Positions 1 to 46,600 of a stretch of DNA of 54,777 nucleotides are shown here, one piece after another (the stretch's first letter is position 1; every line of letters begins with the position of its first letter). Source of the DNA: a virus (lineage: Duplodnaviria; Caudoviricetes); IMG/VR virus record IMGVR_UViG_3300031972_003254, positions 1 to 54,777 of that record; one strand, 5' to 3'. The notes under the pieces are model-generated. The model had not been told where the DNA came from. It saw only the letters and a program-made list of their open reading frames with translations, and did no database searches. The translations under genes were made by a program, and so were the position numbers.

Positions 1-61
1 TCAGAGCCATGGCGGCCTGATGATCAACCGCCCGGCCGCACACGGAAATCCTGACAGTCCC
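1..61 (+). mobile_element. Right end of an IS256-family insertion sequence (possible last transposase codons plus terminal inverted repeat)
   Basis: 39-61 CACACGGAAATCCTGACAGTCCC (rc GGGACTGTCAGGATTTCCGTGTG) resembles IS256/ISRm3-type ends as I recall them; a + strand frame ends ...RAMAA* at 20; Dam similarity stops exactly at 62. Confidence 0.7.
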
Positions 62-255
62 AAGAGATTGACCAGTTCAGCGTCGAGATCGTTCCAAACT
101 TCGGCCGCCGCGCGCGGCTTTCGGAAGCCTACCGACCACGCACCGCCGAACGGCTCGACATAGACGCGGTGCGGCGGAAACTGCGAAATGATCCACGGCG
201 CGAGCAGCCACTTGCCGCCATGCCATCGCAGGATCGGGCGAGGCGGCGCACTCAT
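62..255 (-). pseudogene. DNA adenine methyltransferase (Dam/D12 class), N-terminal part, interrupted
   Basis: LRWHGGKWLLAPWI...YVEPFGG...EVWNDLDAELVNL is the typical Dam N-terminus with SAM-binding motif I; it runs into IS-end sequence and stops at 84 aa. Confidence 0.85.
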
Positions 256-569
256 CCCTGCGAGCCTCGTGCGCGGATGGCGGTGGCGATTGAACGGTAG
301 GTCGCGTTCTCGTGGTCAGTCGCCATCACTGGCTCAATCCACTTCTCAGCCACCCTCGCACACGCCTCCCGCTCGGCTTGCTCGGCGGCTGCAACGACAG
401 CTTCCACGGCCTCGATAATCCGACATGCCATCCAACCAATCGAACTGTCCTCTCGGTTGGCCTCCAGCCAAAGCGCGATATGATCCGCATTCGTGATGTT
501 CAGTTCGCGAGACAGGCGCTCGGTCTCCGCCAGCGCGGCGTCAATGGACTCCTGCGTTATCTCAACCAT
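252..569 (-). CDS. Hypothetical phage protein
   Basis: Overlaps both neighbours; EREACARVAE...IATAIRARG ending typical of phage early genes. Confidence 0.7.
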   Translation of the reverse strand: MVEITQESIDAALAETERLSRELNITNADHIALWLEANREDSSIGWMACRIIEAVEAVVAAAEQAEREACARVAEKWIEPVMATDHENATYRSIATAIRARGSQG

Positions 570-786
570 GGCTTTGTCCCCATGTTATGAAGTCGTCCGG
601 CAGCCAGGCATAAAGCCCGTAAGTCCCGTCCTGTATGTTCTCACACGGCTCCATGTCTTCGCCGTCGAGGACGGCACCGGCATCGGTCGCGAGAAAGATG
701 CGAGCGCCGCTCCCGTCCGAGTAGGTTGCGACGAAAGCCCCGCCCGGAGAGGGGTCGAATGAAAGCATGGAAAGCCATTCAACCAT
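562..786 (-). CDS. Hypothetical phage protein
   Basis: ATG at 786 preceded by AAGGAG; overlaps flanking genes. Confidence 0.6.
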   Translation of the reverse strand: MVEWLSMLSFDPSPGGAFVATYSDGSGARIFLATDAGAVLDGEDMEPCENIQDGTYGLYAWLPDDFITWGQSHG

Positions 787-997
787 GGCCGGTCTCCTTT
801 GCAGGTGGGGTGGGGAGAGGCATCCAGCCTGCGAAGCAATGATCGGCCATCCCGCCATGTCCGGGGTAGAGCGACCAGCCCATGTCATACCCGTCATTCA
901 CGCCCTCGTGGCGGATATCGACCATGCGACCAAGCGCGGCCTCGATCCCGGTCGATGCGCCGCCGCCGCCGGCGAAGTTGTCGACGAGGAGCCCCAT
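779..997 (-). pseudogene. Chimeric remnant: first ~28 aa of a C5-cytosine methyltransferase fused to a DUF551-like C-terminus
   Basis: MGLLVDNFAGGGGASTGIEAALGRMVDI (C5-MTase motif I), then unrelated sequence ending GWMPLPTPP; no PC catalytic motif. Confidence 0.7.
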
Positions 998-1581
998 CAC
1001 CCCTCCCCTTCGCTGGCAGGGGCTGTCCGGGCGGGCCATGCGCCCCAACCAACCGCCACCTTGTCCTCAGTTGGATGCTTATCGGTGCGCGGTCTGCCCG
1101 GCGTGTCCCAGCTGCGGCCCTTTACCCACCATAGCTTTCGCCATTGGCATGCCCGGACAGACGCACCGCCGATCCGCTTCCACTCGGGAGCGCGGGACAA
1201 ACGGTCATCATCGGCATCGCTTTGTGCTGTAATCATCTCGCCGGTCACGCGATGCTCGAAGCGTGCCCATTCGCTTGCGAGCAAATAGGTCAAGCCACGC
1301 CGGTATCCTTTCGCTCTCGCTGCTTTTTCGGTCGCGGCATAGAGTTTCGACGGCGCATTCGGCGTGGTGTCTGTGCAGCAGCGGGTGATTTCGCACGTCA
1401 GCCCGTCATCGATGGCGCGCGCGACCGGCCTGCCGACGACTGCAATGCCGACCAAGTCCCCGTCATCGTCATGCATACCGTGAAGCCAGAGAAACCCTAC
1501 TGGCCAGCCATGATGCCGGTGATGCTGCCTTACGAAGGCGCGGCCCTCGTCGCGCGTCACCGGACGAAGGTCGACGCTCAT
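997..1581 (-). CDS. XF1762-family (Mom-like, GNAT-fold) protein
   Basis: HHRHH, GIAVVGRPVARAIDDGLTCEITRCCTD, NAPSKLY, ARAKGYRRGLTYLLASE, GASVRA motifs; ATG 1581 overlaps upstream stop (ATGA). Confidence 0.8.
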   Translation of the reverse strand: MSVDLRPVTRDEGRAFVRQHHRHHGWPVGFLWLHGMHDDDGDLVGIAVVGRPVARAIDDGLTCEITRCCTDTTPNAPSKLYAATEKAARAKGYRRGLTYLLASEWARFEHRVTGEMITAQSDADDDRLSRAPEWKRIGGASVRACQWRKLWWVKGRSWDTPGRPRTDKHPTEDKVAVGWGAWPARTAPASEGEG

Positions 1582-1832
1582 GCCGCGTTCCCTTTGGTTT
1601 TGGCTTCGATCAGCCGCGCGAGGTCCTCCACGGTGTCGGCGCGCCACAATTCGGTGTCGCCGATGGTGATCGCGTGCTCGTCTTCGAGGTTCATCGCCAG
1701 CAAGACGATCTCGTCGGAGCGCAGGTCCAGGTCGCGCTTGAGCGACGAGCATGCATCGGCGCGCCGCGCCGCAGCGGGGCTGATCGCCGCGATGGCGGCG
1801 GTGGCGGCGGTGATGAGGGCGGGATCAGCCAT
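1578..1832 (-). CDS. Acyl-carrier-protein-like protein
   Basis: DLDLRSDEIVLLAMNLEDEHAITIGDTELWRADTVEDLARLI aligns without gaps to ACP [42 protein letters not shown]; Ser39 occupies the phosphopantetheine position. Confidence 0.75.
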   Translation of the reverse strand: MADPALITAATAAIAAISPAAARRADACSSLKRDLDLRSDEIVLLAMNLEDEHAITIGDTELWRADTVEDLARLIEAKTKGNAA

Positions 1833-1859
1833 TGGCTTTCTTTCCCTGGTCGCGGGTCA

Positions 1860-2588
1860 TCAGCCCTCTCCCTCAGGCAGGACATCATCGCCGATGGATT
1901 TCACCGCCGTGGCGAAGCGCTCGCCGCCATATCCGTCACGGCACAGTTCCAGCACCTGGTCGAGCGGCAAGACCTCGGTGTCGGGATCGACGCCCCGAGC
2001 GCGCAGCCCTTCGCGCAGGCCACTCTCGCAGGCACCGGTCAGCAACCGATAGTCGTTGAACGTCACTGTCCCGCGCTCGCGGATAGTGGCCACGAGTTCT
2101 TCGGGATCGAAATCCACCTGCGCTATCTTGAACCGCAGGTCGCGCAATGCCTGTTCAGCCGTCTCGCCATGCGCCGAGTAGCCGCCTTCGGTCGCCACGA
2201 AGCAGCGCTTATCGGTCTCAAGGTTGCCCTTGAAATATTGAGCCGACCACAGTTCAGCCTCGCCCATCATTCGCTTCGAGATCAGCCGCATCGCATAGCC
2301 ATCGACAGTGCGGAGCCGGATGCGTTTTTCCTGATAGGGCTGTTCTTCATCGGTCAGGCTGCCGAGGTAGAGGTTGCGGCCCGCCGAGATGGTGACGCCC
2401 TCGGGCAGCGCGGTCAGGCTGCCGAGGTAGAGGTAGCCGCCCGCCGAGATGGTGACGCCCTCGGGCAGCGCGGTCAGGCTGCCGAGGTAGAGGTTGCCGC
2501 CCGCCGAGATGGTGTTCCTGTTTTGTGTGAAATCGTAGCCCTGTGCCGTGAGGTAAGCGCAGAGCGATTCTATGGTCTCGATTTTCAT
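1860..2588 (-). CDS. Phage protein with short LRR-like 20-aa repeats and conserved C-terminal domain (alternative start 2627)
   Basis: TISAGGNLYLGSLTALPEGV x~2.7, then SAHGETAEQALRDLRFK...YRLLTGACESG; RBS GGAAGGACAGG. Confidence 0.8.
   Translation of the reverse strand: MKIETIESLCAYLTAQGYDFTQNRNTISAGGNLYLGSLTALPEGVTISAGGYLYLGSLTALPEGVTISAGRNLYLGSLTDEEQPYQEKRIRLRTVDGYAMRLISKRMMGEAELWSAQYFKGNLETDKRCFVATEGGYSAHGETAEQALRDLRFKIAQVDFDPEELVATIRERGTVTFNDYRLLTGACESGLREGLRARGVDPDTEVLPLDQVLELCRDGYGGERFATAVKSIGDDVLPEGEG
2351..2514. repeat. Tandem 60-bp repeat, ~2.7 copies
   Basis: Units start at 2351, 2411 and 2471; identical except within one 10-mer (aggttgcggc / aggtagccgc / aggttgccgc). Confidence 0.95.
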
Positions 2589-2626
2589 TTCCTGTCCTTC
2601 CGAGAGGATGTAGCGGAGCGCGCGCA

Positions 2627-2833
2627 TCAGGCGGCCCCCATCCACAGCGCCGCGCCGATGACGGCAGCGACAAGCGCAAGACCCGCGAGGGCGACCCCTG
2701 CCCGCCTGGGCGAGCGGTCATCGTCCATCGGCTGGATCGGCCCGTAGGTTGCCCGGCGCTGGTCAGCGTCGGACCATGCGCGCGGCAGGACCGAGCGGTC
2801 GGGGCGCTGCGTGGTGTGGTAGCGATAGCTCAT
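2627..2833 (-). CDS. Small protein with C-terminal transmembrane helix
   Basis: Hydrophobic C-terminus AGVALAGLALVAAVIGAALWMGAA; tight spacing in operon. Confidence 0.65.
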   Translation of the reverse strand: MSYRYHTTQRPDRSVLPRAWSDADQRRATYGPIQPMDDDRSPRRAGVALAGLALVAAVIGAALWMGAA

Positions 2834-2835
2834 GG

Positions 2836-3240
2836 TCAGAACCGCCCTATGCAGTCCGGACAGTCGCAGTCCGGATCGTGAGCATCCTCCTCGTCGCCCG
2901 CCGCAGCGGAGAGGAACGATGGAAGTTCTTCGCTGGAAGGCAGCGCGACCGGAGGCACGACGGCAGCCACGCTCGGCGGAAGCTGATAGGTCTGCTGCGG
3001 GCGGCGCGCGTAGGCGGTCGCCGCGTCGCAGGGCGTGAACTGGTAGATCGAGCCGCCGCCCAGCAGGACCGGGCCGAGCATGACCTGCCCGAACAGCGGT
3101 TCTACCTGCAGCATCTTGGTGCCGAACCTCTCGACCTCGGCAACTCTGCCGACGAGCGTGCGATGCCCCAGCGCTTCGACGATAGCGTACTCGCCTGCGG
3201 GCATGTCCGAGACGGTGTTGATAAGGATGGCGTCAGTCAT
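2836..3240 (-). CDS. Conserved phage protein with C-terminal Cys cluster
   Basis: YAIVEALGHRTLVGRVAEVERFG...GGGSIYQFTP family motif; HDPDCDCPDC tail; start 3240 or 3249. Confidence 0.75.
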   Translation of the reverse strand: MTDAILINTVSDMPAGEYAIVEALGHRTLVGRVAEVERFGTKMLQVEPLFGQVMLGPVLLGGGSIYQFTPCDAATAYARRPQQTYQLPPSVAAVVPPVALPSSEELPSFLSAAAGDEEDAHDPDCDCPDCIGRF

Positions 3241-3613
3241 CGTCGCCATCCTCGGCTTTCGCAGACGCCCACTCGGTGCCTTTGCCGTGTGCGGCGCACC
3301 CGCCGTTGTCGCCCCACACCTTGGAGCAGGTGCAGCGCGGCATGACTTCGGGCATCGGCCCCGGACCATCGGCGAGCCACTTGTCGGCCATCGGCTTCTC
3401 CGCAGCGGCTGGCGAGTCGACCTCGGCGAAGTCGCGATCCGCGCGCAGGAAGTGAACGCCGTCCGCCGCATGTGCGAGCGCGGCAGCAGCATCGAGGCTG
3501 GACGATGCGACGAACCGGTCATTGATGAGCGCATTGATCGCCCCGGCCGGACGGTCGGCCTCGACCATGACCTTCGTGTCGCACTGCGTATCGGTGATGA
3601 GATAGACGGGCAT
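3233..3613 (-). CDS. Hypothetical phage protein
   Basis: RBS GAGGA before ATG; operon position; CTC...CAAH possible metal site. Confidence 0.7.
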   Translation of the reverse strand: MPVYLITDTQCDTKVMVEADRPAGAINALINDRFVASSSLDAAAALAHAADGVHFLRADRDFAEVDSPAAAEKPMADKWLADGPGPMPEVMPRCTCSKVWGDNGGCAAHGKGTEWASAKAEDGDDD

Positions 3614-3690
3614 CGGGGGTGTTCCTCTTCGGGGAAGCTAAGGCCATCCTCGGGGTGCGCCGGAAGACGGCGGCGCACCCTCCGGGGGCG

Positions 3691-5013
3691 TCAGCCGTCC
3701 TGCTGTGCCTTCTCGGCCTGCTTGGGCTTCGAGGGGAACTTCTTGCGCGCAGCAGCGGCTGCCTTCTCCAGCTCCGCCTGCACCGCATCCGGAAACCCGG
3801 CCATGTGGCGCACAAGCGTCTCGTCCGTCCGGGCGACATCCCTGGGGGTTTCGGCAAGGTTGAAGCCGTCGAGGATTTCCCGGCGTCGTTCAGCCCATGG
3901 AGCGCCCCGGTAAGGGTCCTTTCCGGCGTCGTCCGAAATCGGCTCCTGCTGCTCCTCGCCGTGCTGCTCGTCGGTGCGCCCCTCGGCGGCAGACGGATTG
4001 TCCTCGTCGAGCGTGCCGTCGTTGGCCTCGTTGCCCGCATCGAGGGCGCGGGCGGTTTCCTCGTCGACCTCGGTCATGCCGCGGCTGTCGCGCTGTTCGG
4101 CGACTTCGCCGGTTTCGGGGTCATGGCTGGGCTGATTGTCCTGATCGTCGTCGGACAATTCGCCCCGCCCCGGCAGCGTCACCGGGCCCGTCGGTTCCGT
4201 GGCGAGATAAGCGGCAGCGCTGTCAGCGGCGCGCTCGGATTCCATATCCCGCTCGATAGCCTGCAGCACGTCGCCGCTCATGGGCAGGACCTTGGAGTGA
4301 CGGCGCAGGACCGTCTTGCGGGCCATCTCGCCGAACCAGTCGACCCAAGGGCCCTTGGGCTGAATAGGCGTGCCATCCCTCTTCTTCTTGCCGAGCGCGC
4401 CGGTCTGGCTGGACTGGCGGACCTGATCGATCTCCGCCCGGCGCATGACCTCGACCGACCAATACGGATCGCCCCCGAACTCGTTCTTGAGCTTGGCGAT
4501 AGAGTAGGCCGCGACGATCTTGTCGTCGGTCGTTTCCTCGATCGAGAGCAGCAGGTTCGGGCGGTAGCGGATCGGCGGCTCGAGGCCGACTTCGTAGAGG
4601 AAGTGGCCGCTTTCGAGGTCGGCGTGATAGACCACGCCGGTTTCGATGCTGATGACTTCGCCCGACTGCAGGATTTTCTTCCTGAGACCGTAGACCATCG
4701 GCATCGGCTGGACTTGCCAGATTTCGCCGCTCTGCCTGCTCCATGTCTTGAACGGCACGAGCGCGGCTTCGCGTCCGTCGGGGATAAGGCCGTCCTGGGC
4801 CAGCTTCATCGCGGCGAGCAGGAACGACTGGCGGTCGCAATGGAGAAGCTGCGGGTTCTGGATTGCGGCGGTCGCCACCACGCGCTGGAACTTCTCCGGC
4901 GTGATGTGCTGCGGCAGAACCATGCGGAACTCATCGGCGCGCCTAGTGAGCTGGTTCTTGAGGGCGTCTATGGGATCGCGCTCGCGGCGCGGTTCGAGGG
5001 CGGTGGAAGCCAT
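3691..5013 (-). CDS. recT: RecT-family single-strand annealing protein with long acidic tail
   Basis: LPQHITPEKFQRV...NPQLLHCDRQSFLLAAMKLAQDGLIPDGREAALVPF...PWVDWFGEMARKTVLRRHSKVLP. Confidence 0.92.
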   Translation of the reverse strand: MASTALEPRRERDPIDALKNQLTRRADEFRMVLPQHITPEKFQRVVATAAIQNPQLLHCDRQSFLLAAMKLAQDGLIPDGREAALVPFKTWSRQSGEIWQVQPMPMVYGLRKKILQSGEVISIETGVVYHADLESGHFLYEVGLEPPIRYRPNLLLSIEETTDDKIVAAYSIAKLKNEFGGDPYWSVEVMRRAEIDQVRQSSQTGALGKKKRDGTPIQPKGPWVDWFGEMARKTVLRRHSKVLPMSGDVLQAIERDMESERAADSAAAYLATEPTGPVTLPGRGELSDDDQDNQPSHDPETGEVAEQRDSRGMTEVDEETARALDAGNEANDGTLDEDNPSAAEGRTDEQHGEEQQEPISDDAGKDPYRGAPWAERRREILDGFNLAETPRDVARTDETLVRHMAGFPDAVQAELEKAAAAARKKFPSKPKQAEKAQQDG

Positions 5014-7836: not shown

Positions 7837-8451
7837 TTAGAGTTCCTGCCCCACGTAAACGACCCGTCCGATCACCACGAACGGCTCTGCCCCGAGCGTC
7901 ATGTCCTTGTGCTCGGGATTCGTCGAGCAAGGGCACAGGCGCATGGGATCGGCGCGGAACTGCTTGAAGTTGGTTTCGCCCTCGGCATTGGCGAGAGCAT
8001 AGTATTTGCGGTCGACAAGTTCGCGGTCGTCAGGATCGACAACGATGAACCCTCCGTCGCGAACAATCAGGTCCATGGAATCGCCAGACGGCCTCAAGGC
8101 GAACAAACGCTCGCCTTTAAGGTGCCCCGGCACAGCGAGCGTTTCATCACTCATCTCTATCGCCTCTCGCCAATTACCGGCAGAAATCTGCCCTGCAACG
8201 GGGATAAGACGAACAGGGTTAACAACATATTGTTCAAATATCTGCTCGGGCGGAACCCCCAGCGCGCGCGTGATGTCGTTGATGTAGTCGAGCGACAGGG
8301 CCATGCGCCCGCTCTCCAGCTTCGCGATCGTGCTGGCCGTAAGCTCGCTGTCCATCCGCGCCCCAAGCTCCTCCAGGGTGAGCCCGGCGGACTTGCGGAG
8401 TTCCTTGATACGGTTCGGGGCATAGCGGCGCGGTGTCTTCATGAGGGACAT
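7837..8451 (-). CDS. cI: CI-like repressor (XRE HTH plus S24 peptidase)
   Basis: NRIKELRKSAGLTLEELG...TIAKLESG HTH; SAG cleavage site; GDSMD catalytic Ser; NFKQ Lys. Confidence 0.93.
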   Translation of the reverse strand: MSLMKTPRRYAPNRIKELRKSAGLTLEELGARMDSELTASTIAKLESGRMALSLDYINDITRALGVPPEQIFEQYVVNPVRLIPVAGQISAGNWREAIEMSDETLAVPGHLKGERLFALRPSGDSMDLIVRDGGFIVVDPDDRELVDRKYYALANAEGETNFKQFRADPMRLCPCSTNPEHKDMTLGAEPFVVIGRVVYVGQEL

Positions 8452-15378: not shown

Positions 15379-16200
15379 ATGCTCGGCCTGCCCGATCTTG
15401 TCGGCCAGCTTCTCCCCCTGGCCGATGCCATGGGGCTCGAACTCACTCCCGAGAACGTCGACGAGTTCGTGGCAGCGCTCGACGACGAGCTTGTCGAAGC
15501 GCTGCTGGACCCCATCCTCGCCGAGGAAGAGCGGGCGCGCTACAGCCGGTTCGCAGACCTCTTCCCCGACCATGGCCCGCTGCGGCGCGAGCTGTATGCC
15601 CGCCACCTCGAGTTCTTCGCTGCCGGCAAGGACTTTCGCGAGCGATGCTTCCTGGCCGCCAACCGCGTCGGCAAGACGGTGGCAGGCGGCTACGAGGTCA
15701 CGGCCCACCTTACCGGCCACTACCCGCATTGGTGGGAGGGCTTCCGCTTCCGCCGCCCCATTCGCGGCTGGGCGGCTGGCGACACCAACGAGACGACCCG
15801 CGACATCATCCAACTCGAACTGCTCGGCCAAGTCGTCAGCGGCGATGATGGCCGCAAGGCGCTCGACGGTTCCGGGCTGATTCCCCGACAATGCATCGGC
15901 CAGCCCAAGTGGAAGCAGGGCGTGCAGGACCTCGTCGACTATGTGCCGATCCTGCACGTCACCGGCGGCTGGTCTGTCATCGCGTTCAAGTCGTTCGATC
16001 AGGGACGGCGCGCGTTCCAGGGCACCGCGAAGGAGCTTATCTGGCTCGACGAGGAATGCCCCGAGGACGTCTACAACGAGTGCCTGATCCGCACCGCCAC
16101 GACGCGCGGACGGGTGCTCACGACGTTCACCCCGCTTTCCGGCCTGACGCCGCAGGTGCTGCAGTTCCTGCCCAAGGAGATGCGGCCCGAAGGCGTCTGA
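15379..16200 (+). CDS. terL: Terminase large subunit, N-terminal ATPase cistron
   Basis: Walker A AANRVGKT, Walker B IWLDEE, coupling motif TFT; ends TGA TAG. Confidence 0.9.
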   Translation: MLGLPDLVGQLLPLADAMGLELTPENVDEFVAALDDELVEALLDPILAEEERARYSRFADLFPDHGPLRRELYARHLEFFAAGKDFRERCFLAANRVGKTVAGGYEVTAHLTGHYPHWWEGFRFRRPIRGWAAGDTNETTRDIIQLELLGQVVSGDDGRKALDGSGLIPRQCIGQPKWKQGVQDLVDYVPILHVTGGWSVIAFKSFDQGRRAFQGTAKELIWLDEECPEDVYNECLIRTATTRGRVLTTFTPLSGLTPQVLQFLPKEMRPEGV

Positions 16201-16242: not shown

Positions 16243-16268
16243 ACCGGTAGCAGGTGGGATTGCAGGGC

Positions 16269-17012
16269 GTGCCGCAGATCAACTCGTCGAAATACATGGT
16301 GCAGGCGGGCTGGGATGACGTCCCGCACATCGACGACACCACGAAGCGCGAGTTGCTGGAAAACACCCCTGTCCACCTTCGCGACGCACGCTCCAAAGGG
16401 ACGCCAAGTTTGGGCGCGGGTGCGATCTACCCCATCGAGCAGAGCGAGATCATCGTCGATCCCTTCGCCATCCCGGCCTACTTCGCCAAGGGCTACGGCA
16501 TGGACGTGGGCTGGAACCGCACCGCCGCCGCGTTCGGTGCCTGGGACCGCGACAACGACGTGCTCTACATCTACGCCGAGCACTACCGGGGGCAGGCCGA
16601 ACCCTCGATCCATGCCGACGCGATCAGGGCGCGGGGCGACTGGCTCATCGGAGCCATCGACCCGGCATCGCGAGGGCGCGCACAGAAGGATGGCGAACAA
16701 CTTCTCGGTATCTACCGCGAACTCGGGCTGAACCTGCAGCTCGCGAACAACGCGGTCGAGGCGGGCATCCTCGAAGTCTGGCAGCGCTTCTCTTCCGGCC
16801 GCCTCAAGATATTCCGGTCCTGCCAGAACGTCCTCAACGAGCACCGCCTGTACCGGCGCGACGAGAAAGGCCGGATAGTCAAGGAGTTCGACCACCTCAT
16901 GGACGCCATCCGCTACCTCGTCCTCGCCATGGCCAACATCATGCGCACCAAGCCCGTGATCGCCCGGCCAGAGAACGCCTTCACCGCCGCCGACCGCCTC
17001 GCAGGATACTGA
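16269..17012 (+). CDS. terL: Terminase large subunit, C-terminal (lid plus RNase H-like nuclease) cistron; start GTG 16269 or 16254
   Basis: AGWDDVPHI...ARSKGTPSLGAGAIYP; GMDVGW; IDPAS; DHLMDAIRY. Confidence 0.88.
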   Translation: MPQINSSKYMVQAGWDDVPHIDDTTKRELLENTPVHLRDARSKGTPSLGAGAIYPIEQSEIIVDPFAIPAYFAKGYGMDVGWNRTAAAFGAWDRDNDVLYIYAEHYRGQAEPSIHADAIRARGDWLIGAIDPASRGRAQKDGEQLLGIYRELGLNLQLANNAVEAGILEVWQRFSSGRLKIFRSCQNVLNEHRLYRRDEKGRIVKEFDHLMDAIRYLVLAMANIMRTKPVIARPENAFTAADRLAGY

Positions 17013-34633: not shown

Positions 34634-37600
34634 ATGGAACGTGACCTTTTCGCGGAGATAGAATCTGGCCGCGATCAGCAGCCCGCGCAACGGGACCTGT
34701 TCGCCGAACTGGACGCGAAGCCCGCTCCGCAGAAGGCCGCTCCCCGGCAGACGGCGCCCGAACCGCAGCAGCCCTCGCGCGGTCTCGGTGCGTGGATCAG
34801 CGACACATGGCAGAGCGCCAGCGATGCCATGCAGCCGCTTCGGGAAGCCGTTGGCTATGATCCCGAGGCTGCGCGGCTCGAACAGGCGCGAGCGGCAGAC
34901 CGCATCCGCCAGAGGCAGGCCGCGGACCTCGCCGAGCAGAGCGGTCCGCTCGACCGTATCGGCGATTTCTTCACGCGCGGCGAAGTGGCGATGGACGCTG
35001 GAATGCAGCGCCTTGCCAGCGCGATTGAGACGGACCCGGTGCGGCGTCAAGACGCTATCGATGCAGCCCGCGCAGGCGAAGTCATCGCTCGCACACCCAT
35101 CCAAGGCGAAACCACTTGGGAGGATGTGAAGGGCAATTGGTGGAACGCCCCGAAGTTCGTGCTCGAACAGGGCGTCGCCAGCCTTCCGCAGATGGCTCTC
35201 TCCGCGATGGGGCCGGGCGTGCTCGTCAACTTCGGCAGCAACACCGGCCAGATTGCACAGAGCCGTGCCGAAGCCGACGGGCGCAAGGATGCGACCGGGC
35301 GCGATGCGGCATTTGCCGCGCCGTTCTCCGCAGCGTCTACCGCGCTCGATGTCGTCGGCCTCGGCTCCGTCATGGGCAACGCCGGTAAGACGGCAGCAGG
35401 TCGCATCGCAGTGGCGGCAGGCACCGAAGGTGTGACCGAAACGGCGCAGGGTGCAATCGAATATACCGGCGGCGCGTTCGGCACCCAGCAGGGCATGAAT
35501 GGCCGCGACCTGTTCGAGAACATGCTGCAGAGCGGACTCGTGGGCGCGGGCGTGGGCGGTGGGCTGCGCACCGGCATAGAGACCGGCGCTTCGGCTCCAG
35601 CGGCGGCGATCAGGGGCGCTCGTACCTTCGCTGGCGCGCTTCGCCGCGATCCCGGCCCCGGCCTTCGCGAACAGTCGGAAGCTGCGGCAGCATCCACGAT
35701 CACGCCCGAGGACGAAGCCAGCCCTCTCGACACTGCTGACATCGTAGCGGGCCGCGCCGAACTGATCCGTGCCGATGCGGGCAAGGCTGCCGACGAGGCC
35801 CTCGCGGGCGGAAACATGCCTGCCGTCGGCAAGCGCGTCGTCGTGACCATGCCGAACGGCGCGACATCGACGGGCGTGATGTCCGACGCCTTCACCAACG
35901 AGGACGGCAGCGGTGTCGTCATCGACCTCGATGGCGGCGGCAAGCTGCGCGAATACACCGACACCCTCGCCGACGCCGGGGTGACGATTTCCGAACTGTC
36001 TCCCACCGCCGAAGCCGACGCGATCGACGCACAGCTTGCCGCGCGGGCACAGGATGCTCTGGCCCCCTCCGAGGGTCTTCCCCTTCCCGCCGTGGATGCG
36101 GGCCAGCAGCAAGGCGCGGCACCCTCACGGACAGAGGGTGCCGCGCCGACCACCGGCACGCCGCTTCACTTCGGTATCGTCACGCGCCTGCAGGAACGCG
36201 GTCTGTCCGAAGCGGCCGCGCGCGGTGTGGCTGCCGGGATCCACGCTGAAAGCCGCAGCGATGCGCGCGCGGTCAACCCGACGAGCGGCGCGATGGGTGT
36301 CGGCCAGTGGCTCGGCTCCCGCAAGAAGGAACTCGTCAAGCGCTACGGTGCGAACCCGACGCTCGACCAGCAGCTCGATTTCCTCGTGTGGGAACTGAAC
36401 GGCGGCGACCACGGCGGCAAGGCGGTGCTCGCCGGGCGCGACGAGAACGCCGTGCTCGAGGCCTACATTACCAAGTTCATGCGCCCCGCGAAGGGTGCGG
36501 AGACGGATGGGGACCTGGCACGCGGACGTGCGGCCCTCGGCAGCCCGCTTGTCGCTGGCAGTGCTCCCGCAGTCATCGATGCCGCCGAAGGCATCGCCCT
36601 TCCCGAACGCGAGGCGGTGGACTTCGGTGCAGTTGCGAAGATTGAAGGCGCGCCGCGCGAGGATGACGGCACCACGGAAGAAACCGCCGGGACGGACCTG
36701 CGCGGGCCGGACCTTGACGCGGAGTGGGTCCGCTTCGCGGAAACCTCGGGCACGCGGAACGTCCCACGCGCGGAGATGCCGCAGATCAAGGCCGAGCATC
36801 GCGGCGCAATGGTGCAGTTCCTGAAGGCGCGCGGGGTCACGCATCAGGAAATGATCGTGCCCGCCAGCACGCTCAAGCCGACACAGGCGGAATTCTCCCC
36901 CGCGAAGGTGCAGGCCGCAAAGGACTATAAGGGCGGCGACCGGGCCATCCTGATCTCCAACGACGGCTACGTCCTCGATGGACATCACCAGTGGCTTGGC
37001 GCTCGCGACGGCGGCGGCGAGGTGCGCACGATCCGGCTCGACGCACCTATCGCCGAACTGATCCCGCTGGCGCACGAATTCCCGAGTTCGACGCAGGCGC
37101 AGGAGACGGATGCTCCAGCGATAGCAGGCGCGGACACCGAAGCCGCCGCGAAGACGCCTGCGGACGCGAGCAGCGTGACCGAATCGGCAGTGCGCGTCGA
37201 GGAGACGCCATCGGGCAAAGGCTTGGCCGTCGTTGGTGCGAGTGAGGCCGATCTTGCCGCCATCGCCGCTGCGGCGCCCAAGGCGCGGGCGGTCAGGAGG
37301 GCGGACGGGGCGATGGTCTATTCGGCGAAGTATGCCGATGCGATCCGGGCGGCAGTGGCAGGAGAGGCAACGCGCGCGCAGCAAGAGCAGGATCCAGCCC
37401 TGACGCCTGACGAGCGCACTGCCCTGGAGCGTCTACTCGCCAGCGACCGCAAAGGCGGCGAAGGCTGGAGCAAGGACAGCGCGGCATACCAGCAGGCGAA
37501 GTCCATCATCGAGGCAGGCCGGACCCGCGATGCAGCCGATGAAAACCTGCTCGTCCGCGCACTGCGCCTTCGCGATGCTGCCGAGCGAGCGAAACCGCCA

Positions 37601-40600
37601 CAGAACGACGATGCGAACGGCCTGGCTGCCGATCAGCCGGAATCCGAAACGGTGTCGCCGAAAGTGGCCCCAAGCCTTGCAGTCAGTGACCAAGCCAGCA
37701 TCGATTTGCTGAGCCGGATGGCCGAGAACGAGGACGACGGAAAGATCACGCCGTTCGACAGCGCAACCCTTCGCGCGAAGATGTTGATCGACGGCGGTTA
37801 TGTCGTGGAAAACAAGGGCGGTAAGACGGGCGCGATGTGGATCACGTCCGAGAAGGGTCGTGCCGTTCTGGACAGAGCAGGTGTCCGGCATGCGCAGTCC
37901 CCCACTTCCACCCCCACTTCCACCCCCACCACACCTGCGCAAGGTGGGGACAAGCCCTCGTCTTACGGCATCTCCAACAAGGTGTTCACCTCCGATGCCG
38001 CCGAAAGAGCCCGCGCGCTACTGCGCGCCAAGCGCGACCAGCTCAACAGCGGGTTCGATCCGGAGATCGCGCAGGCTGGCCTGACCCTCATGGGCTACCA
38101 CATCGAGGCGGGGGCGCGGCAGTTCATCGACGCCGCACGCGCCGTGGCAACAGACCTCGGCATGACGCCGACGGACCTGCGCCGCTCCCTCCGCTCGTGG
38201 TACAATTCCGCGCGCGACTGGATGGAGGACAACGGCCACGACATTCGCGGCATGGACGACGATGCGGCGGTCAAGGTGGACCTGTCCCGGATCGAGCAGT
38301 GGGGAAGCGAACAGACGACACCGACTGCGCAAGGTGCTACGGGAGACGTCGATGCTGAACTTCCGAACGACCTATCTGAACGCGATGCGGGACCAGGCTC
38401 CCGCGATGTTCAAGGAACTTCGCCGAACGGGCGCGATGGAAGCGCATCTCAATCGCAAGATGGAAGAAGCCCGGATGATCTTCCGCGACCTGACCAAGGG
38501 CGCGAAGACGCTGCCGAGCGGGACAATCGCGGATCCGGCAATCGAGAGGGACGCGACCGAGCAAGTCTACGCGACGTTGATCGCGTTCCCGCCGCCAAGC
38601 GCGACGCCGGAAGCCGAACCGGGCCAGCCCGAGACGCCGCCCAGGCCGTAAAGGGCCGCGACTGGATCATCGAACCCGGCTCGCTGGACGAAAGCCGTCC
38701 CGCCCTGCAGAAGGCGCGCGACAATGTCGATGCCATTGCGCTGGTCAAACAGATCGAGGCCGAGGGCCGCCCGGCGACTAAGGCAGAGCAGGCTGTCATC
38801 GCCCGCTATGTTGGCTGGGGCGGCCTGAAGAACGTCTTTCCCGATACCAATGGCGCGTTCGGCAAGGGTTTCGAGCAGCTTGGGCCGCGCCTGCGCGAAC
38901 TGCTGAGCGATGCCGAATACGAGACGGCTCGGCGCTCGATCCAGTATGCGCACTACACGTCCGAAAAGGTCGTGCGGCCGATGTGGGATATTGCCCGCGA
39001 GCTCGGCTTCACCGGCGGCATGGTGTTCGAGCCGGGCATGGGCACCGGTAACTTCCGGGGCATGATGCCTGCCGATCTTGCGGCGTCGAGCCGTTATCAA
39101 GGCATCGAGTACGATCATCTGACCGCGTCGATCGCAAAACTCCTCTACCCGCAGTCCGGCGTTCGACAGGCGGACTATACCACCATGCCGGGCCTCAAAG
39201 GCGTGGCAGACCTGGTGATCGGGAATCCTCCCTTTTCCGAGACCGCGATCAGCGCCGATCCGGAGTACGCGAAGCACAAGTTCCTGCTCCACGACTTCTT
39301 TTTTGCCAAGTCGCTCGATGCGCTGAAGCCGGGCGGTTTGCTCATGTTCGTGACCTCGGCCGGCACGATGAACAAGCGCGATGCGAAGGCGCGCCAGTAT
39401 CTCGCCGACCGCGCGGACCTCGTCGGTGCGATCCGGCTTCCGGGCAACGCCTTCGAAGAAAATGCCGGCACGTCGGTAACGACCGACATCGTCATCCTGC
39501 GCAAGCGCATGCCCGGCGAGGCGGCAGCCGACCAAGGTTGGGTTGCGACTGACACCCGTACCTTGCCGACGCGCGACGGCGGCACGCATACCGGAGCCGT
39601 CAGCCAGTACTTCAACCAACACCCCGAGATGGTGCTGGGCGAGGAAAGCTTCTTCGACAAGCTGGTCGCAGGTCCGCGATACGCCGTCCGCGCGCCAAAG
39701 GGCTTCGATCTTGAAGCGGCAATCCGCACGGCAGCGGACACGCTGACAGGCGCAGTCGTCACCACAACTCCGAGCGCCGAACCCGTTGGCGCGGCGGACG
39801 TTGACCTGACGTCGACCGAGCGGAAGGACGGCTCCTACTACCTCGACGATTCCGGGCGGCTCATGCAGTACCGCGGCGGCGTCGGCGCTCCCGTTCAGTC
39901 TCAGGGCAAGGGCGTACAGGGGGGCATGTCGAAGGCAGCACAGGAGAGGGTGCGAGCCCTCGTGCCTATCAAGGAGGCGCTGCGCGAAGTCTACGCCGCC
40001 GACCTCAAGTCCGACGGCGCGGCGGGCGACGCGGCCCGTCAGAAGCTGAACGTCACCTACGATGCGTTCGTTCAGAAGTTCGGCCCGATCAACAAGACCG
40101 ACATCAGCTACCGCAAGCCGAGTCGCGTCGAGATCGAGGGGCTGCGCGCAGCCGCCCGCGAAGAGGCCCGCCTGGCCGGTGCCGAATGGGACGACGGCAG
40201 CTTCGATGTGCAGCCGATGCTCGACGACGGCCTCAGCATGGCGGAGATCGCGCGCGCCCGCGAGGAAGCACGCGACGCGGCAAAGGCGGCTGGGCGTATC
40301 TGGAACGAAGGGACTTTCGAACCTGAGGACGTTCCGGAGAAGGTCGTCGAAAAGCGCCCCAACCTCGATCCGTTCATGGACGATGAGGAAGGCTACCGTC
40401 TCGCTGCGATCGAGCACTACAACAAGGACACCGGCGAATCGGCGAAAGGCCGCGTGTTCTTCGAAAACGCCGTCAAGCTGGATGCCGCGCCAAAGATAGA
40501 TTCGGCGCAGGACGCGCTTCTCTACAGCCTCAACCGGCTGGGCCGCCCCGACATCGGCATGATTGCCGACATGGCAGGCATGTCGCGTGATGCCGTCATG

Positions 40601-43600
40601 GAAGAGCTTGGCGAACGCCTGTTCGAGGTGCCGGAGCAGCGGGGTGTGCACGAGACCGGAGAGATGTACCTATCCGGCAACGTCCGCGAGAAACTGGCGG
40701 CCGCGCGTGAGGCTGCTGAGCGCGATCCGGCCTTCGACCGCAATGTGCGCGCGCTCGAGGCGGTAATGCCAAAGCCCCTCACCCCTTCGGAGATCACGGC
40801 CAACCTCGGCATGCCGTGGATCCCGGCAGACGTCGTCCGCAGCTTCATGCTCGACAAGATGGAACTGCGCACCGCGAATGTCAGCTACCTTGGCAAGCTG
40901 GCGCAGTGGCTTGTGACCGGCGACAAGGCAAGCTCGGCAGCTACGTCCACCTGGGGCACCGATCGAATGGACGCGGTGGACCTCATGCTTGCCGCACTCA
41001 ACCGTCAGACACCGATTGTGCGCGACCGGATCAGGACGGCGGAGGGCGACAAGAGCATCGTCAACGAGGTCGCCACACAGGCTGCGCAGGACAAGATGGC
41101 CGAGATCAAGGAGGCATTCCGCTCCTGGGTCTGGAACGACGACACCCGCGCCGCCAATCTGGTCGACCTCTACAACCGCGACTACAACAGCCACGTCGCG
41201 CCCAGCTTCAACGGGTTCTACCTGACCACGCCGGGAATCGCCTCGACGTGGCAATGGCGTCCGCATCAGACGACCGTCGTTGCGCGTATCATCCAGTCTG
41301 GCAACACCTATATGGCGCACGAAGTGGGGGCCGGTAAAACCTCGGCGATGATCGGCGCGGGCATGGAAATGAAGCGCCTCGGCCTCGTCTCCAAGCCGAT
41401 GTACGTCGTACCCAACCACATGCTCGGGCAGTTCACCAAGGAGTTCTACGAGCAATATCCGCTGGCCCGCATCCGGGTGGCCGACGAGCGCCGCTTTCAT
41501 ACTTCGCGGCGCAAGGAGTTCGTGGCGCGAATGGCTGCCGACGACCTTGATGCCGTCATCATCACGCACTCGGCGTTCGGCTATATCCCGATGTCGGACG
41601 ACTTCACCGCAGGCATGGTCGAACAGCAGATCGACGACCTTGAAGACCTGTTGAAGGAACTCGGTAAAGGTCAGGACGTCCGCATCACGCGGCGCAAGGT
41701 CGAGCAGCAGAAGGAGGCGCTGGAACAGCGTCTGCGCGGGCTGACCAACAGGAAGCGCGATCAGGTTTTCACCTTCGAGGAAACCGGCGTTGATTTCCTG
41801 TTCGTGGACGAGGCGCACGAGTTCCGAAAACTCGATTTCGCCACCCGCATGGGTGACGTGAAGGGTATCGACCCGCAGGGATCGCAGAAGTCTTTCGACC
41901 TGTTCGCAAAGACCCGTTACCTTGAACAGCAGCGCCCGGGCCGGAATCTCGTCCTTGCCTCGGGCACGCCCATCACGAACACCATGGCCGAATTGTACTC
42001 GGTCAGCCGCTACCTGCAGGGCGCTGAACTGGAGAAGCGCGGCCTTGGCCACTTCGACGCCTGGGCCGGCGCTTTCGGTGACACGGTCACGGCGCTGGAG
42101 CAGGACCCCGCCGGAGGGTACAAGCCGCAGACTCGCTTCGCCAAGTTCATCAACGTGCCCGAATTGTCCGTGATGGTCCGGCAGGTGATGGACGTCGTAG
42201 GCGCTACCGAACTTCGGCAGTACGTGTCGCTCCCCAACCTGAAAGGCGGCTCCCGGCAACTCGTATCGGTGGAGATGACAGAGAACCAGGCGGCTTACAA
42301 AGGCACGCTGCAGCGGCGCATGGAGGCGATTCAGCGCCGCAGCGGCCCGCCGCAGAAGGGTGACGACATCTTGCTGTCCGTCATCGGCGACGGGCGCAAG
42401 GCTGCCATCGACTATCGCCTCATCGACTCTACCGCTCCGCGCGAGGAAGGATCGAAGTTGGAACGCATGATCCAGGAGGTTGCGCGCCGCCACAAGGAAT
42501 TCAGCCGCACGCCGTTCCATGCGCCGCTACCCGCCGGGGCGGGGTTCTCCGAGAAGGCCGAAACCTACGGCCCGGCAACGCAGATGATCTTCTCCGACTT
42601 TGGCATCAACGGCGACTTTCCGGTCCACAAATATATCCGAAGTTCACTGATCGAGCGCGGCATTCCGGCCGGGCAGATCGCCATCATCAGCGATTTCAAG
42701 ACGCACGTCGCAAAGCAGCGCCTCTTCAACGACATGAACGAGGGCAAGGTGCGCGTGCTGATCGGCTCGGTTGCCAAGATGGGAACGGGCGTCAACGCGC
42801 AGCGACGCCTGCGCGCCCTGCACAACATGGACGCGCAGTGGTACCCGGCCAACGACACTCAGCGGAACGGTCGGATCATCCGCCAGGGCAACATGAACCC
42901 CGAGATCGAAATCCTCGATTACGCGACCGAGGGCACTTACGATTCGACCATGTGGGGTCTGATGGCCAAGAAGGCCCGGTTCATCGAGGGGTTCATGCGC
43001 GGCGATCCGACCATGCGCGACATGGAGGACCTGGGCGAAGCCAGCCAGTACGAGCAGGTTTCGGCGATGACGACCAGTGACCCTCGGATCATGGAGTTGA
43101 CCGAGTGGGAGCAGGAGCTTGAGAAGATCGAACGGCGCAAGGCAGCGCACGAACGCGACCAGCAGAACATTCGTCTGGAAATCATGCAAGCGGAGGAGCG
43201 CGCGGCAAGTACGTCGGCGCGCATTCCCCTGATTGAACAGGACATTGCGGCCCGCAATCTGCCTGAAAATGACGCATTCACCGGCGTCGTTCGAGGGCGG
43301 ACCTACGACGACAAGGCTGAGTTCGGTGCAGCGCTTATGGATGCCGCCGAGGACATTACCGGACGGGCGAACGGAAAGACGCTTCGCGAAGGTGTGGGCG
43401 AATTCGGCGGGTTTAAGATTGCGGCAGAATCGCACCCCGGCATGGATGGCACTGAAGCCAGCTTCTACATCAAGCGGGCGGGCGGGCGGGAAAGCCGCGT
43501 CGACATGGGCTCCGATGCCAGAGGCCTTGTGACGCGCATCACCAATGTTTTGCGCAGGTTCGACGAGGATTTGGATTGGGCGCGTTCATCCGTCGAGGCA

Positions 43601-46600
43601 GCCGAGCGGCGCATGGCCGACTTCCGCCCCAAGCTGGGCGCGAAGTTTGATGATGGCGGCAAGGGCGCTGACTTGCGCGAGAAGATCAATGGGCTTGAAG
43701 CTGCGTTGGCTGCCGAAAGCGCAGCAGCAGAAGCCGCGAGGAAGGCAGCCCCCGGCGAAGCGCGGCAATCAATCCCCGAGGCCGACCTGCCAGTTGTTGC
43801 CGAGCTCACTGGCTCGGAGCTTGGCAAGCTGCTGCCACCCGGCCGGGCGCGCATCACGATGCTGCGCGACCGTGCAATCGCATGGTTTGCGCAGAACCTG
43901 CGCGGCAAGACGATCACGGCATCCGACGGCAAGCCGGTGGCATTCACCAAGCGCGGGCAAGCCAAATCCACCTCGCGCAAGGGTGACGAGGTCCTGCGCA
44001 TCGTGCCTGCCATTCCGGACCTGATTTCCAAGGGTGTCGTGCGACCTATGGAACAGCGCCTTCTGCCGAACGGCATCGTCAAGTCGGAGATGTTCGCCGG
44101 CATCGTCATGCTCGACGGCAAGCCGGTGCGTGCGGGTGCTATCGTGCTAACCGACAACAGCGGCAGCCGTCACTACGACCTGACCAACGAGGTGAGAAGC
44201 GCCACCGGGAACCCCGGCGAGCCGGGCGGTGCTACAGACAAGTCCAGCGTTCCGTCATTGGATGGTGAACCCGGCGGCGACTGGAACCTAATCCCGATTT
44301 CCGAGGATTTCAATGCGGCTCGCGAAGGGCTGGACGAAGCAGCCCTGGCCGAGCAGCTTCAGCAGCGCCTCGAAGGCTATGGGCTTGGGCGAAAGGTGGC
44401 GCTGCGTGTCGTAGAGACGCTGAACGGGGCGGCCGGCGACTATCGAGCGGCCCTGATCCGGATCGCGACTGACACATCGCAGGACGGGACGTTCACGCTC
44501 GACCACGAGGCGGTGCACGCCTTTCGTGACCTGGGCGTCTTCAACAACTCGGAGTGGGCCGTGCTGGCAGCGAAGGCCCGGCGCGATACCGGCCTCATGC
44601 GCTCGATTCGGCAGCGCTATCCCCGGCTGGATGCCGAAGCGCAGGTAGAGGAAGCCGTGGGCGACATGTTCGCTCGCTGGCGCCGCGGCGATTATCGCGC
44701 CGAGGGCACCGTCGCCCGCGTGTTCAAGCGGCTGGGAGAGATGATCGAGGCCATCGGCAATTGGCTGGCCGGGCGCGGCGCACGCACGTCAGAAGGCGTC
44801 ATGGAGGACATGGCAGGCGGGGATGTCGGTGTGCGCGAAGGGCGCGCTGCGTCCGCCGAGGCCGATGCTCGCCATGCCATTCCCGAACGCACGGCCATGA
44901 TCGAACTTGGCGGGAGCGACCCCACCTGGCGCAGCAAGATGAGCGATGCCTTCGACCGCTGGCGCACCGCCGTTCAGGATCGCTACCTGCCGCTCCTGAA
45001 AGTGCAGCGCGAGATCGAGCGCGCGACGGGCAAGCCGCTGCCGGTCAACCGCAATCCCTACCTCGGCGAGGAATTGATGACGGGCCGGATCGGCGCTGCG
45101 CTGGAGCAGCTTACGGACAGGCACGTTGGCCCGCTTTTCGATGCCATGCACGCGGAGAGCATCACCGCCGACGAACTGGAAACCTACCTCTACGCCCGAC
45201 ATGCACCGGAGCGGAACGAGCGCATTGCCTCGATCAATCCCGAATTCGAACAGGGCGAAGGCTCGGGCATGACCGACATCGAGGCCATGGCCGTGATGAA
45301 CCGGATCGAGCGCGAGGGACGCACCGAGGCGATGGAGCGACTCGCCGCGCGCGTGGACGCAATCCGGGAAATGACGCTGAACAAACAGGTCGAGACGGGC
45401 CTCATCAGTCAGGAGCAAGCGGACGAACTGCGCGCCACCTACGAGCACTATATCCCGCTGCGCGGCTTCGCGGAGATGGGCGAGGACGCCGATCCGGCGC
45501 TTGCCGACCGCATCAACCGTTCCGGCGGCGGCATCAACGTGCGCGGACGTGAAAGCAAGCCGGCCTATGGGCGGCGCAGCAAGGCGGACTCGCCGCTCGC
45601 CTACCTGATCCTGCAGGCCGAAAGTGCGATCGTGCGCGGCGAAACGAACCTTGTGGCGCAGAAGTTCGTGAACCTCGCAAAGGCCAACCCCGACGACGAG
45701 TTCTGGAGCGTCAACAAGGTGTCGCACCGCCAGCGGGTCAACGAGGAGACCGGGCTGGTCGAGCGTTATCTGACCCGCAACCTGCTGGCGGCGGACGCCG
45801 ACTGGACGGTGAGCGCCAAGTTCGGCGGCGTGGAGCGGCGCGTCACGATGAACCGGGCGAACCCTGCTGCCCGCCGCCTCGCCGACGCCATGCGCAACCT
45901 GACGCAGCAGCAACTCGATTGGGTGACGCTGCACCTTGGAAAGGTGAACCGGTTCCTTTCGGCGGTGAATACGAGCTACAACCCCGAGTTCGTCATCACC
46001 AATGCCTTCCGCGACCTGCAGACCGCAGCGTTCAACCTGAGCGGCGAGGAGGTCGAGGGCCTGACGCGCGGGGTTCTCAAAGACTATCGCGCGGCGCTGG
46101 TCGCATCGACCAAGGGCGCGTTCGGGCGCGGCGAGGGTGAGTGGGGCCGCTGGTACGAGGAGTTCGCGAGCGAAGGCGGGCGCGTCTACTTCAATCGCGT
46201 CGAGAACGTGGCCGAGATCAAGAAGCGGATCGAGAAAACCATCGCACTCGCATCGGTCAAGGCAGGCGACGGCTCCGCCCGTCTGCGTGCGAAAAGGGTC
46301 TTCATGGCGGTTCGCGACGGCATCGAAGGAGTAAACTCCGGCATCGAGAATGCCGTGCGCCTTTCCACATACAAGAACGCGCGCGAGCGCGGCCTTTCCC
46401 GGGAACGGGCGGCCAGCCTGGCAAAGAACGTCACCGTCAACTTCAACCGCCGGGGGACGATGGGGCCGGCAATCAACGCGGCCTACCTGTTCTTCAATGC
46501 ATCGGTGCAGGGCACCGCCCGGATCGCCATGGCGCTGCGGTCGAAGCGCGTGCGCAAGATGATGGCCGGCGTGATGATCGCGGGTGCCGTGACCGAAATG

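Follow-up and report, generated by a model that had tools for sequence, protein, structure and literature searches.

Results

Gene layout and neighbourhood

The stretch of DNA analysed in this study, to which we refer as the window, is the whole of an IMG/VR provirus record, 54,777 bp in length, with an estimated completeness of 91%. The right end of the provirus is formed by an integrase gene (53506-54777, minus strand), and a CI-like repressor gene is located at 7837-8451, also on the minus strand; a RecT gene and a gene for a DnaQ-like exonuclease lie within the leftward early operon. At the far left end of this operon, on the minus strand, are the two genes with which we are concerned here. 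The upstream one (1578-1832) encodes an 84-residue protein which, as judged from its open reading frame, an AlphaFold2 (AF2) model and Foldseek comparisons, is predicted to have the fold of an acyl carrier protein (ACP); the codons for R38-S39-D40, at 1713-1721, mark a putative phosphopantetheine site, as read from the sequence, the model and alignments with ACPs. The downstream gene (997-1581) encodes a 194-residue protein of the XF1762 family, with a predicted, Mom-like GNAT fold (evidence from NF045478, phrog_1384, AF2 and Foldseek). A 33-residue insert in this protein (residues 105-137), which can be recognized both in an alignment of the family (alignment A2) and in the AF2 model, corresponds to positions 1171-1269. 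The two genes share the four nucleotides ATGA (1578-1581), in which the TGA stop codon of the ACP gene overlaps the ATG start codon of the XF1762 gene, as had been read in a first-pass annotation of this DNA.

The same annotation had placed two methylase remnants downstream of the gene couple, and both are recovered. The nearer one (779-1048, minus strand; 89 residues) matches phrog methylase families only over residues 19-48, which represent motif I of a C5 DNA methylase, and has a weak DUF551 match in its tail, at residues 67-82; this composition suggests that the frame is a chimera, originating from a deletion that fused two genes. The other (1-255, minus strand) runs to the edge of the provirus record and corresponds to the N-terminal 84 residues of a D12/Dam adenine methylase: it matches PF02086 with E = 4.6e-10 (residues 11-65 on profile positions 1-58 of 253), as well as TIGR00571 and phrog_56.

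The GC3 of the 84-residue frame is 0.86, a value of the coding type and the same as that of the adjoining genes, and a purine-rich run is present ahead of its ATG. No island of GC content was detected at the ACP gene, and the composition of the surrounding DNA is unremarkable; a scan of positions 1-4000 for promoters and terminators yielded none on the minus strand, and no excess over shuffled sequences. Directly upstream of the ACP gene (1860-2645, minus strand) there is a gene for a 242-residue protein with a 60-bp (20-residue) repeat at 2351-2514 (2.7 copies, 97% identity). This protein matches no Pfam or PHROG family and has only three relatives among viral contigs; in none of the three is its gene followed by an ACP or XF1762 gene.

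Some features in other parts of the provirus are recorded here as separate observations. The large subunit of the terminase is split between two plus-strand frames, 15379-16200 (Terminase_6N) and 16254-17012 (Terminase_6C), with a gap of ~50 bp between them, which could be due to a frameshift or to an intervening element, or else mean that the prophage is defective. In the tail region, a single frame of 4321 residues (34634-47599, plus strand) encodes a 'large polyvalent protein' in which Pfam recognizes LPD38, LPD3, phage tail lysozyme, N6 DNA methylase/Eco57I and SNF2/DEAD helicase domains; given the N6 methylase domain, this phage would therefore have a second, probably injected, DNA-methylase activity. 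Near the integrase end, two adjacent plus-strand genes for Adhesin_E-like proteins (surface-adhesin protein E; 49280-49723 and 49757-50323), which are likely to be lysogenic-conversion morons, lie beside an antirepressor gene (47852-48988, minus strand). Sequence of the provirus is carried by five DNA sequencing runs from seawater/marine metagenomes, belonging to two studies; there is no RNA run among those listed.

An 84-residue protein with a predicted ACP fold

Of the computational checks that the first-pass annotation had suggested for the small protein, the profile search fell short, with a score of 17.8 bits for the Pfam PP-binding family (PF00550) against a gathering score of 20.8, while structure prediction did return an ACP fold. 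Other profile libraries give a similar picture. Eight NCBIfam ACP models match the protein with E values from 3e-7 to 0.01, all of them far below their cut-offs (the best, NF002148, reaches 30 bits with E = 3.4e-7, its cut-off being 71), and the match to PHROG 5934, 'acyl carrier protein', is weak (E = 0.004). A phmmer search of the PDB produced 24 matches at E ≤ 1, every one of which is an ACP; in the five alignments shown, all gapless, R38-S39-D40 falls opposite the D-S-L of solved ACPs, in agreement with the earlier reading of a retained serine in a DSL motif changed to RSD. The gapless character of the similarity to ACPs, which had also been noted, holds in both the phmmer and the BLASTP alignments; the earlier count of 16 identities in 48 positions with E. 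coli ACP is replaced by a close value of 15 in 41 in the BLASTP alignment with AcpP (E = 0.003). Core ACP positions that are kept in the protein include L31, D34, L35, S39, E50, D59 and E61.

The AF2 model has a pLDDT of 94.2, and in it helix II spans residues 39-53, thus beginning at Ser39. When the model is compared with the PDB by Foldseek, all the matches listed (to rank 50) are ACPs, with TM scores of 0.76-0.83 (best 0.83). Since this model was built from an alignment of ACPs, the independent check of the fold is provided by the alignment-free Atlas model of the same protein, which superimposes on PP-binding clusters with TM scores of 0.83-0.87. The convergence of the AF2 model, the Foldseek matches and the alignment-free model indicates that the ACP fold is real. 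In summary, the sequence case for a four-helix ACP fold is weak but consistent, and the fold evidence derived from the models is strong.

Like the ACPs of type II fatty acid synthesis (AcpP, PF00550), the 84-residue protein has a predicted four-helix fold with a serine at the start of helix II, an acidic helix II, and a gapless alignment across its residues 27-79; it differs from them in scoring under the Pfam and NCBIfam cut-offs, in having R-S-D where they have D/S/G-S-L/M, and in being encoded by a prophage gene with no FAS, PKS or NRPS neighbour. With phage-encoded ACPs (PHROG 5934, moron/AMG category) it shares, through a weak match, the character of a small stand-alone carrier borne by a phage; in contrast to them, a search of 2.9 million viral contigs yielded no relative of it. 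The portion of a recent preprint available to us calls phage ACPs poorly characterised and predicts that one of them binds host FabZ (10.64898/2026.03.01.708874). A literature search combining ACP, bacteriophage, anti-restriction and DNA modification returned nothing relevant.

Surroundings of Ser39 and relatives of the ACP

A filter-free HMMER search of 1.84 billion representative sequences with the 84-residue protein produced 11 matches at E ≤ 1e-3. The nearest non-self relative in this set is 38% identical, and nine of the ten best non-self matches exceed the PF00550 threshold. To nine relatives from the HMMER search we added 115 from a profile search, for a total of 124 nearest relatives in which the residues flanking the serine were counted; P0006, a protein of 1665 residues, was excluded from this alignment. 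The position of Ser39 is occupied by Ser in all 124 relatives, and is likewise invariant in alignments A1 and A3. At position -1 the relatives have Ser (89), Gly (31), Asn (2) or Asp (2), and at position +1 Leu (105), Met (17), Val (1) or Ala (1); the Arg and the Asp found at these two positions in the window protein occur in none of the 124. Positions +2 and +5 are also off the consensus of the subfamily. The carrier site of this protein has therefore retained its serine in changed surroundings.

The ACP is the only member of its cluster at 90% identity, and is present on seven contigs. The XF1762 protein of the window, whose cluster has seven members, is found on the same seven contigs, so that the two genes occur together on 7/7 of the contigs that carry them; all seven represent one prophage. 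The ACP gene is thus a singleton lineage, found only in this prophage lineage. A word-index search with the ACP alone recovered only the protein itself among 29 candidates, and pattern scans identified no relatives in viral contigs or in genome contigs; a scan of the viral contigs for P0002, the nearest relative of the ACP, was negative as well. An additional scan of the viral contigs with an alignment of 33 sequences gave no ACP relative, with the proviso that its matches were confirmed by means of the window's own ACP, and therefore distant phage ACPs would fail the confirmation.

A Mom-like member of the XF1762 family

The assignment of the 194-residue protein to the XF1762 family, which had been made in the first-pass annotation, is upheld by a match of 143.8 bits to NCBIfam NF045478 (XF1762_fam; cut-off 50, E = 3.2e-42) over two stretches that flank the insert, and the protein can be regarded as a full member: it keeps 34 of the 34 columns that are invariant in 25 aligned XF1762 sequences. 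Its likeness to Mom, also proposed earlier, derives from structure and from a PHROG label. The protein matches phrog_1384, 'Mom-like DNA modification protein', with E = 1.3e-23, while the Pfam family for Mom itself (PF25680) gives 14.7 bits against a gathering score of 27.1, and only over residues 5-56. The AF2 model (pLDDT 88.3) has a GNAT fold, and its best match in the PDB is Mom of phage Mu (8bv8_B; E = 1.1e-6, TMq = 0.58, 11% identity); the matches listed after it are GNAT-type acetyltransferases, a few labelled only as putative. In a weak hhalign alignment with Mu Mom (E = 0.12), R111 falls opposite the invariant R67 and H58 opposite the invariant H21; the invariant S78 is possibly the counterpart of S124. 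In the accessible text of a 2026 study, R111 and S124 are described as essential in Mom and a structure of the S124A variant is reported (PMC13219725). Searching PDB sequences with the XF1762 profile gave only chance matches (E of at least 0.034), and in the three alignments shown an HHRHH motif lies opposite His-tags. No publication was found in a full-text literature search for 'XF1762'.

A further likeness to Mu Mom is the phage DNA-modification context of the XF1762 gene, which adjoins methylase genes. Apart from the low identity and the subthreshold Pfam score, a further difference from Mu Mom concerns its HTH-like insertion (residues 175-209), which has no equivalent in the XF1762 model. 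In its place there is a conserved basic loop of 20 residues, GRSWDxPxRPRTDKHPTEDK (residues 155-174; 1060-1119, minus strand), nearly invariant in 25/25 aligned members, which lies between the last two strands and is modelled with low confidence; since it takes the place of an insertion that is essential in Mom, this loop may be a DNA- or tRNA-binding element. Overall, 'Mom-like GNAT' is a fair description of the protein, one that stops short of assigning it to Mom proper.

The insert, estimated earlier at about 30 residues, is real. It comprises 33 residues in the window protein and in one relative (L001), 27 in another (L002), and 11-12 in three more (L003, L008 and L013), and it is missing from 19 of the 24 relatives aligned in A2; in this respect the window protein departs from most of its family. 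In the model it is located between strand beta5 and helix alpha4 of the GNAT fold as a hairpin followed by a helix, in a block with pLDDT of 95-97. The best match in BFVD, A0A6J5LU57, is an XF1762-like domain (34% identity) contained in an 877-residue 'ART-PolyVal-like' phage protein; members of the XF1762 family can thus also be built into polyvalent proteins as one of their modules.

The chemistry of Mom has been revised in recent years. A 2020 study, in the part of its text available, proposed that acetyl-CoA and iron are involved, and reported that the reaction could not be reconstituted (PMC7261163). The corresponding text of the 2026 study describes Mom alone as moving glycine from Gly-tRNA(Gly) to the N6 of adenine in double-stranded DNA, with a subsequent rearrangement on the base (PMC13219725). 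On that description Mom does without a carrier protein, and it can no longer be assumed that Mom-type enzymes have no known donor.

Co-occurrence of ACP and XF1762 genes

We compared 124 loci with relatives of the XF1762 gene (34-81% identity), of which 44 are from viral contigs and 80 from species-representative genomes, these being the best 80 of 142. The flanks considered were of 3 kb for the viral and 4 kb for the genomic loci, with the exception of five loci for which whole records were used, so that a distant ACP gene would be missed in the other 119; any bacterial host, moreover, has an ACP of its own. No ACP was found near any of the 124 XF1762 relatives (0/44 viral within 3 kb; 0/80 genomic within 4 kb), and the co-occurrence that the first-pass annotation had put forward as a check of its proposal did not materialize. 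Neither a tblastn search of the 44 viral loci with the window ACP, nor an ACP profile run over the 80 genomic loci (8,610 frames), gave any match; with all filters off, the same profile, run on the 4,717 frames of the viral loci, picked up the window's own gene and nothing else. As a positive control, in the pooled database of 13,328 frames this profile recovered the window ACP with E = 7e-31 and E. coli AcpP with E = 3e-16, and the latter value shows that it works as a general ACP detector. A PF00550 search of the five whole viral records with an insert-bearing XF1762 gene, two of which are at least 90% complete, was likewise negative (0/5); in the control for this search the window's own ACP was recovered with E = 3.4e-4.

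At the DNA level, the similarity between the window and four viral relatives (L001, L002, L003 and L008) is confined to 1034-1593, and for the two closest of them to 1034-1575; in other words, it ends at the edges of the XF1762 gene. The genes upstream of XF1762 are mutually unrelated in the 44 viral loci, and across the relatives they comprise hypothetical proteins of 53-597 residues, C5 methylases, an HNH endonuclease (L051) and, as read from its translation, a SWIB-like protein (L047), the last two in the closest of the genomic relatives. The XF1762 family therefore needs no specific upstream partner. Since the insert is also present in L001, L002, L047 and L051, none of which has an ACP, the insert does not track the ACP, and the suggestion that it forms a docking surface for it gains no support. 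Also the four-nucleotide overlap of the start codon with the stop of an upstream frame is seen in 68/124 relatives (34/44 viral, 34/80 genomic; frames of at least 40 codons were counted in DNA of high GC content, and some may be chance frames), which identifies it as the usual packing of the XF1762 family, with nothing specific to the ACP.

A complex prediction for the XF1762 protein and the ACP from alignments A2 and A1, carried out without controls, scored 0.01 against a mark of 0.32, a result that has no bearing on binding either way. The 54.8-kb record contains no match to the phosphopantetheinyl transferase (PPTase; PF01648) or AMP-binding ligase (PF00501) families. A Pfam search of 52 ORFs of the window (including part of those in 22.4-31 kb) found no acyl-handling enzyme; what it did identify belongs to recombination, regulation, terminase, capsid, antirepressor and adhesin-like functions. 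To the extent that gene content can tell, the related genomes show the adjacency of the ACP and XF1762 genes to be an apparent accident, and not a conserved working pair.

Discussion

The first-pass annotation had envisaged the ACP as the supplier of an acyl group for a DNA-modifying enzyme. In such a scheme, once phosphopantetheinylated by a host transferase and carrying an acyl or aminoacyl group, the ACP would dock on the XF1762 protein, perhaps on its insert, and the group would be passed to DNA. It is true that the genes are adjacent and overlap in an ATGA, that the serine is retained at the start of helix II, that the insert emerges close to the cleft where the cofactor usually sits, between beta5 and alpha4, and that the XF1762 protein has a predicted GNAT fold, acyl-ACP being used by some GNAT-fold enzymes. 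However, the overlap is generic, no XF1762 relative has an ACP nearby, and the insert is shared by loci devoid of one; this insert carries an acidic SDADDD patch, while the receivers of the acidic helix II of ACPs would usually be expected to be basic. Moreover, the residues flanking the serine are unlike those of all 124 ACP relatives, searches of the phage gave neither a PPTase nor a loading enzyme, and Mom is described, in the text accessible to us, as needing Gly-tRNA only (PMC13219725). We regard such a dedicated pair as highly improbable. A different connection between the two genes would be regulatory, with the ACP, or merely the translation of its frame, controlling a toxic Mom-like neighbour, either by inhibiting it in the manner of an antitoxin or by serving as a coupling leader, in a place equivalent to that of com ahead of mom in Mu. 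The ACP fold is not known to us as an RNA- or GNAT-inhibiting module, and the unrelated genes that precede XF1762 in the relatives, from 53 to 597 residues in size and including methylases and an HNH endonuclease, speak against a conserved controller. The analogy has some appeal, because in GNAT toxin-antitoxin pairs a small overlapping gene stands upstream of the GNAT gene, and the locus resembles com-mom in having a small gene ahead of, and overlapping, the start of a modification gene (according to the annotation of the Mu record). Unlike the present case, Com is a translational activator, again by record annotation, whereas an ACP-fold protein is encoded upstream in the window, and the gene in this place varies arbitrarily among the XF1762 relatives. 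Mom is indeed described as highly toxic and tightly regulated in the part of the 2020 study available (PMC7261163). On balance a regulatory role is improbable.

It is also conceivable that the ACP gene has no present function, being a fragment of a captured host gene that drifts toward loss at a decaying prophage end. The two methylase remnants that adjoin the gene couple, the isolation of the ACP as a singleton lineage, its score under the Pfam gathering threshold and the alteration of conserved residues on both sides of the serine would all fit this view, and the terminase large subunit in two ORFs hints at a defective prophage. Against it, the frame is intact with a GC3 equal to that of its neighbours, a purine-rich stretch precedes the ATG, the fold is predicted with a pLDDT of 94, and the core positions of ACPs, from L31 to E61, are retained; we consider decay rather unlikely.

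The explanation that we favour, and that we believe to be probably correct, is that two independent genes, a stand-alone Mom-like modifier and an orphan, atypical ACP, have been joined by phage mosaicism. The head-to-tail genes at the end of this temperate-phage early operon would then belong to a mosaic corner made up of genes for DNA modification and anti-restriction. The XF1762 protein would act as a stand-alone Mom-like GNAT enzyme, for which a phage-encoded carrier is not needed; by analogy, it may modify the phage DNA after replication with a small activated donor of the host, either an aminoacyl-tRNA, as Mom does, or acyl-CoA. The ACP-fold gene, in turn, would be an accessory gene, or 'moron', whose product, if active, we infer to be directed at ACP-dependent enzymes of the host, and not at its neighbour. 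A poorly modified or unmodified mimic that binds the partners of the host ACP, an option that the first-pass annotation had also raised, is about as likely as a holo carrier produced by a host transferase: the mimic keeps this weight because both flanks of the serine are off all 124 relatives and neither a transferase nor a loading enzyme came to light in the phage.

Within this framework of independent genes, the comparative data leave some room for a partnership that is new in this single lineage. It is unlikely, although it would give a distinct meaning to the peculiarities of both proteins, that the ACP has been recruited here to the Mom-like enzyme, as a donor or as a brake. As a donor, a protein-bound thioester would replace the tRNA or CoA donor and lead to a new DNA hypermodification; as a brake, the apo-ACP would sit on a toxic modifier. 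Such a recruitment would have left its traces in the unique R-S-D and in the lineage-restricted insert.

Carrier-protein-dependent DNA modification, if true, would represent a new route to the hypermodification of phage DNA; from a comparison of loci, it is unlikely to operate in this provirus. The interest of the two genes is then largely separate. A phage-borne ACP that is altered at both flanks of its serine is a candidate test case for phage look-alikes of ACP acting on host enzymes. The XF1762 protein, in turn, is an intact, insert-bearing member of an uncharacterised family, and, with the tRNA-dependent chemistry of Mom now described in the accessible text of the 2026 study (PMC13219725), the family deserves to be examined for DNA-modifying activity.
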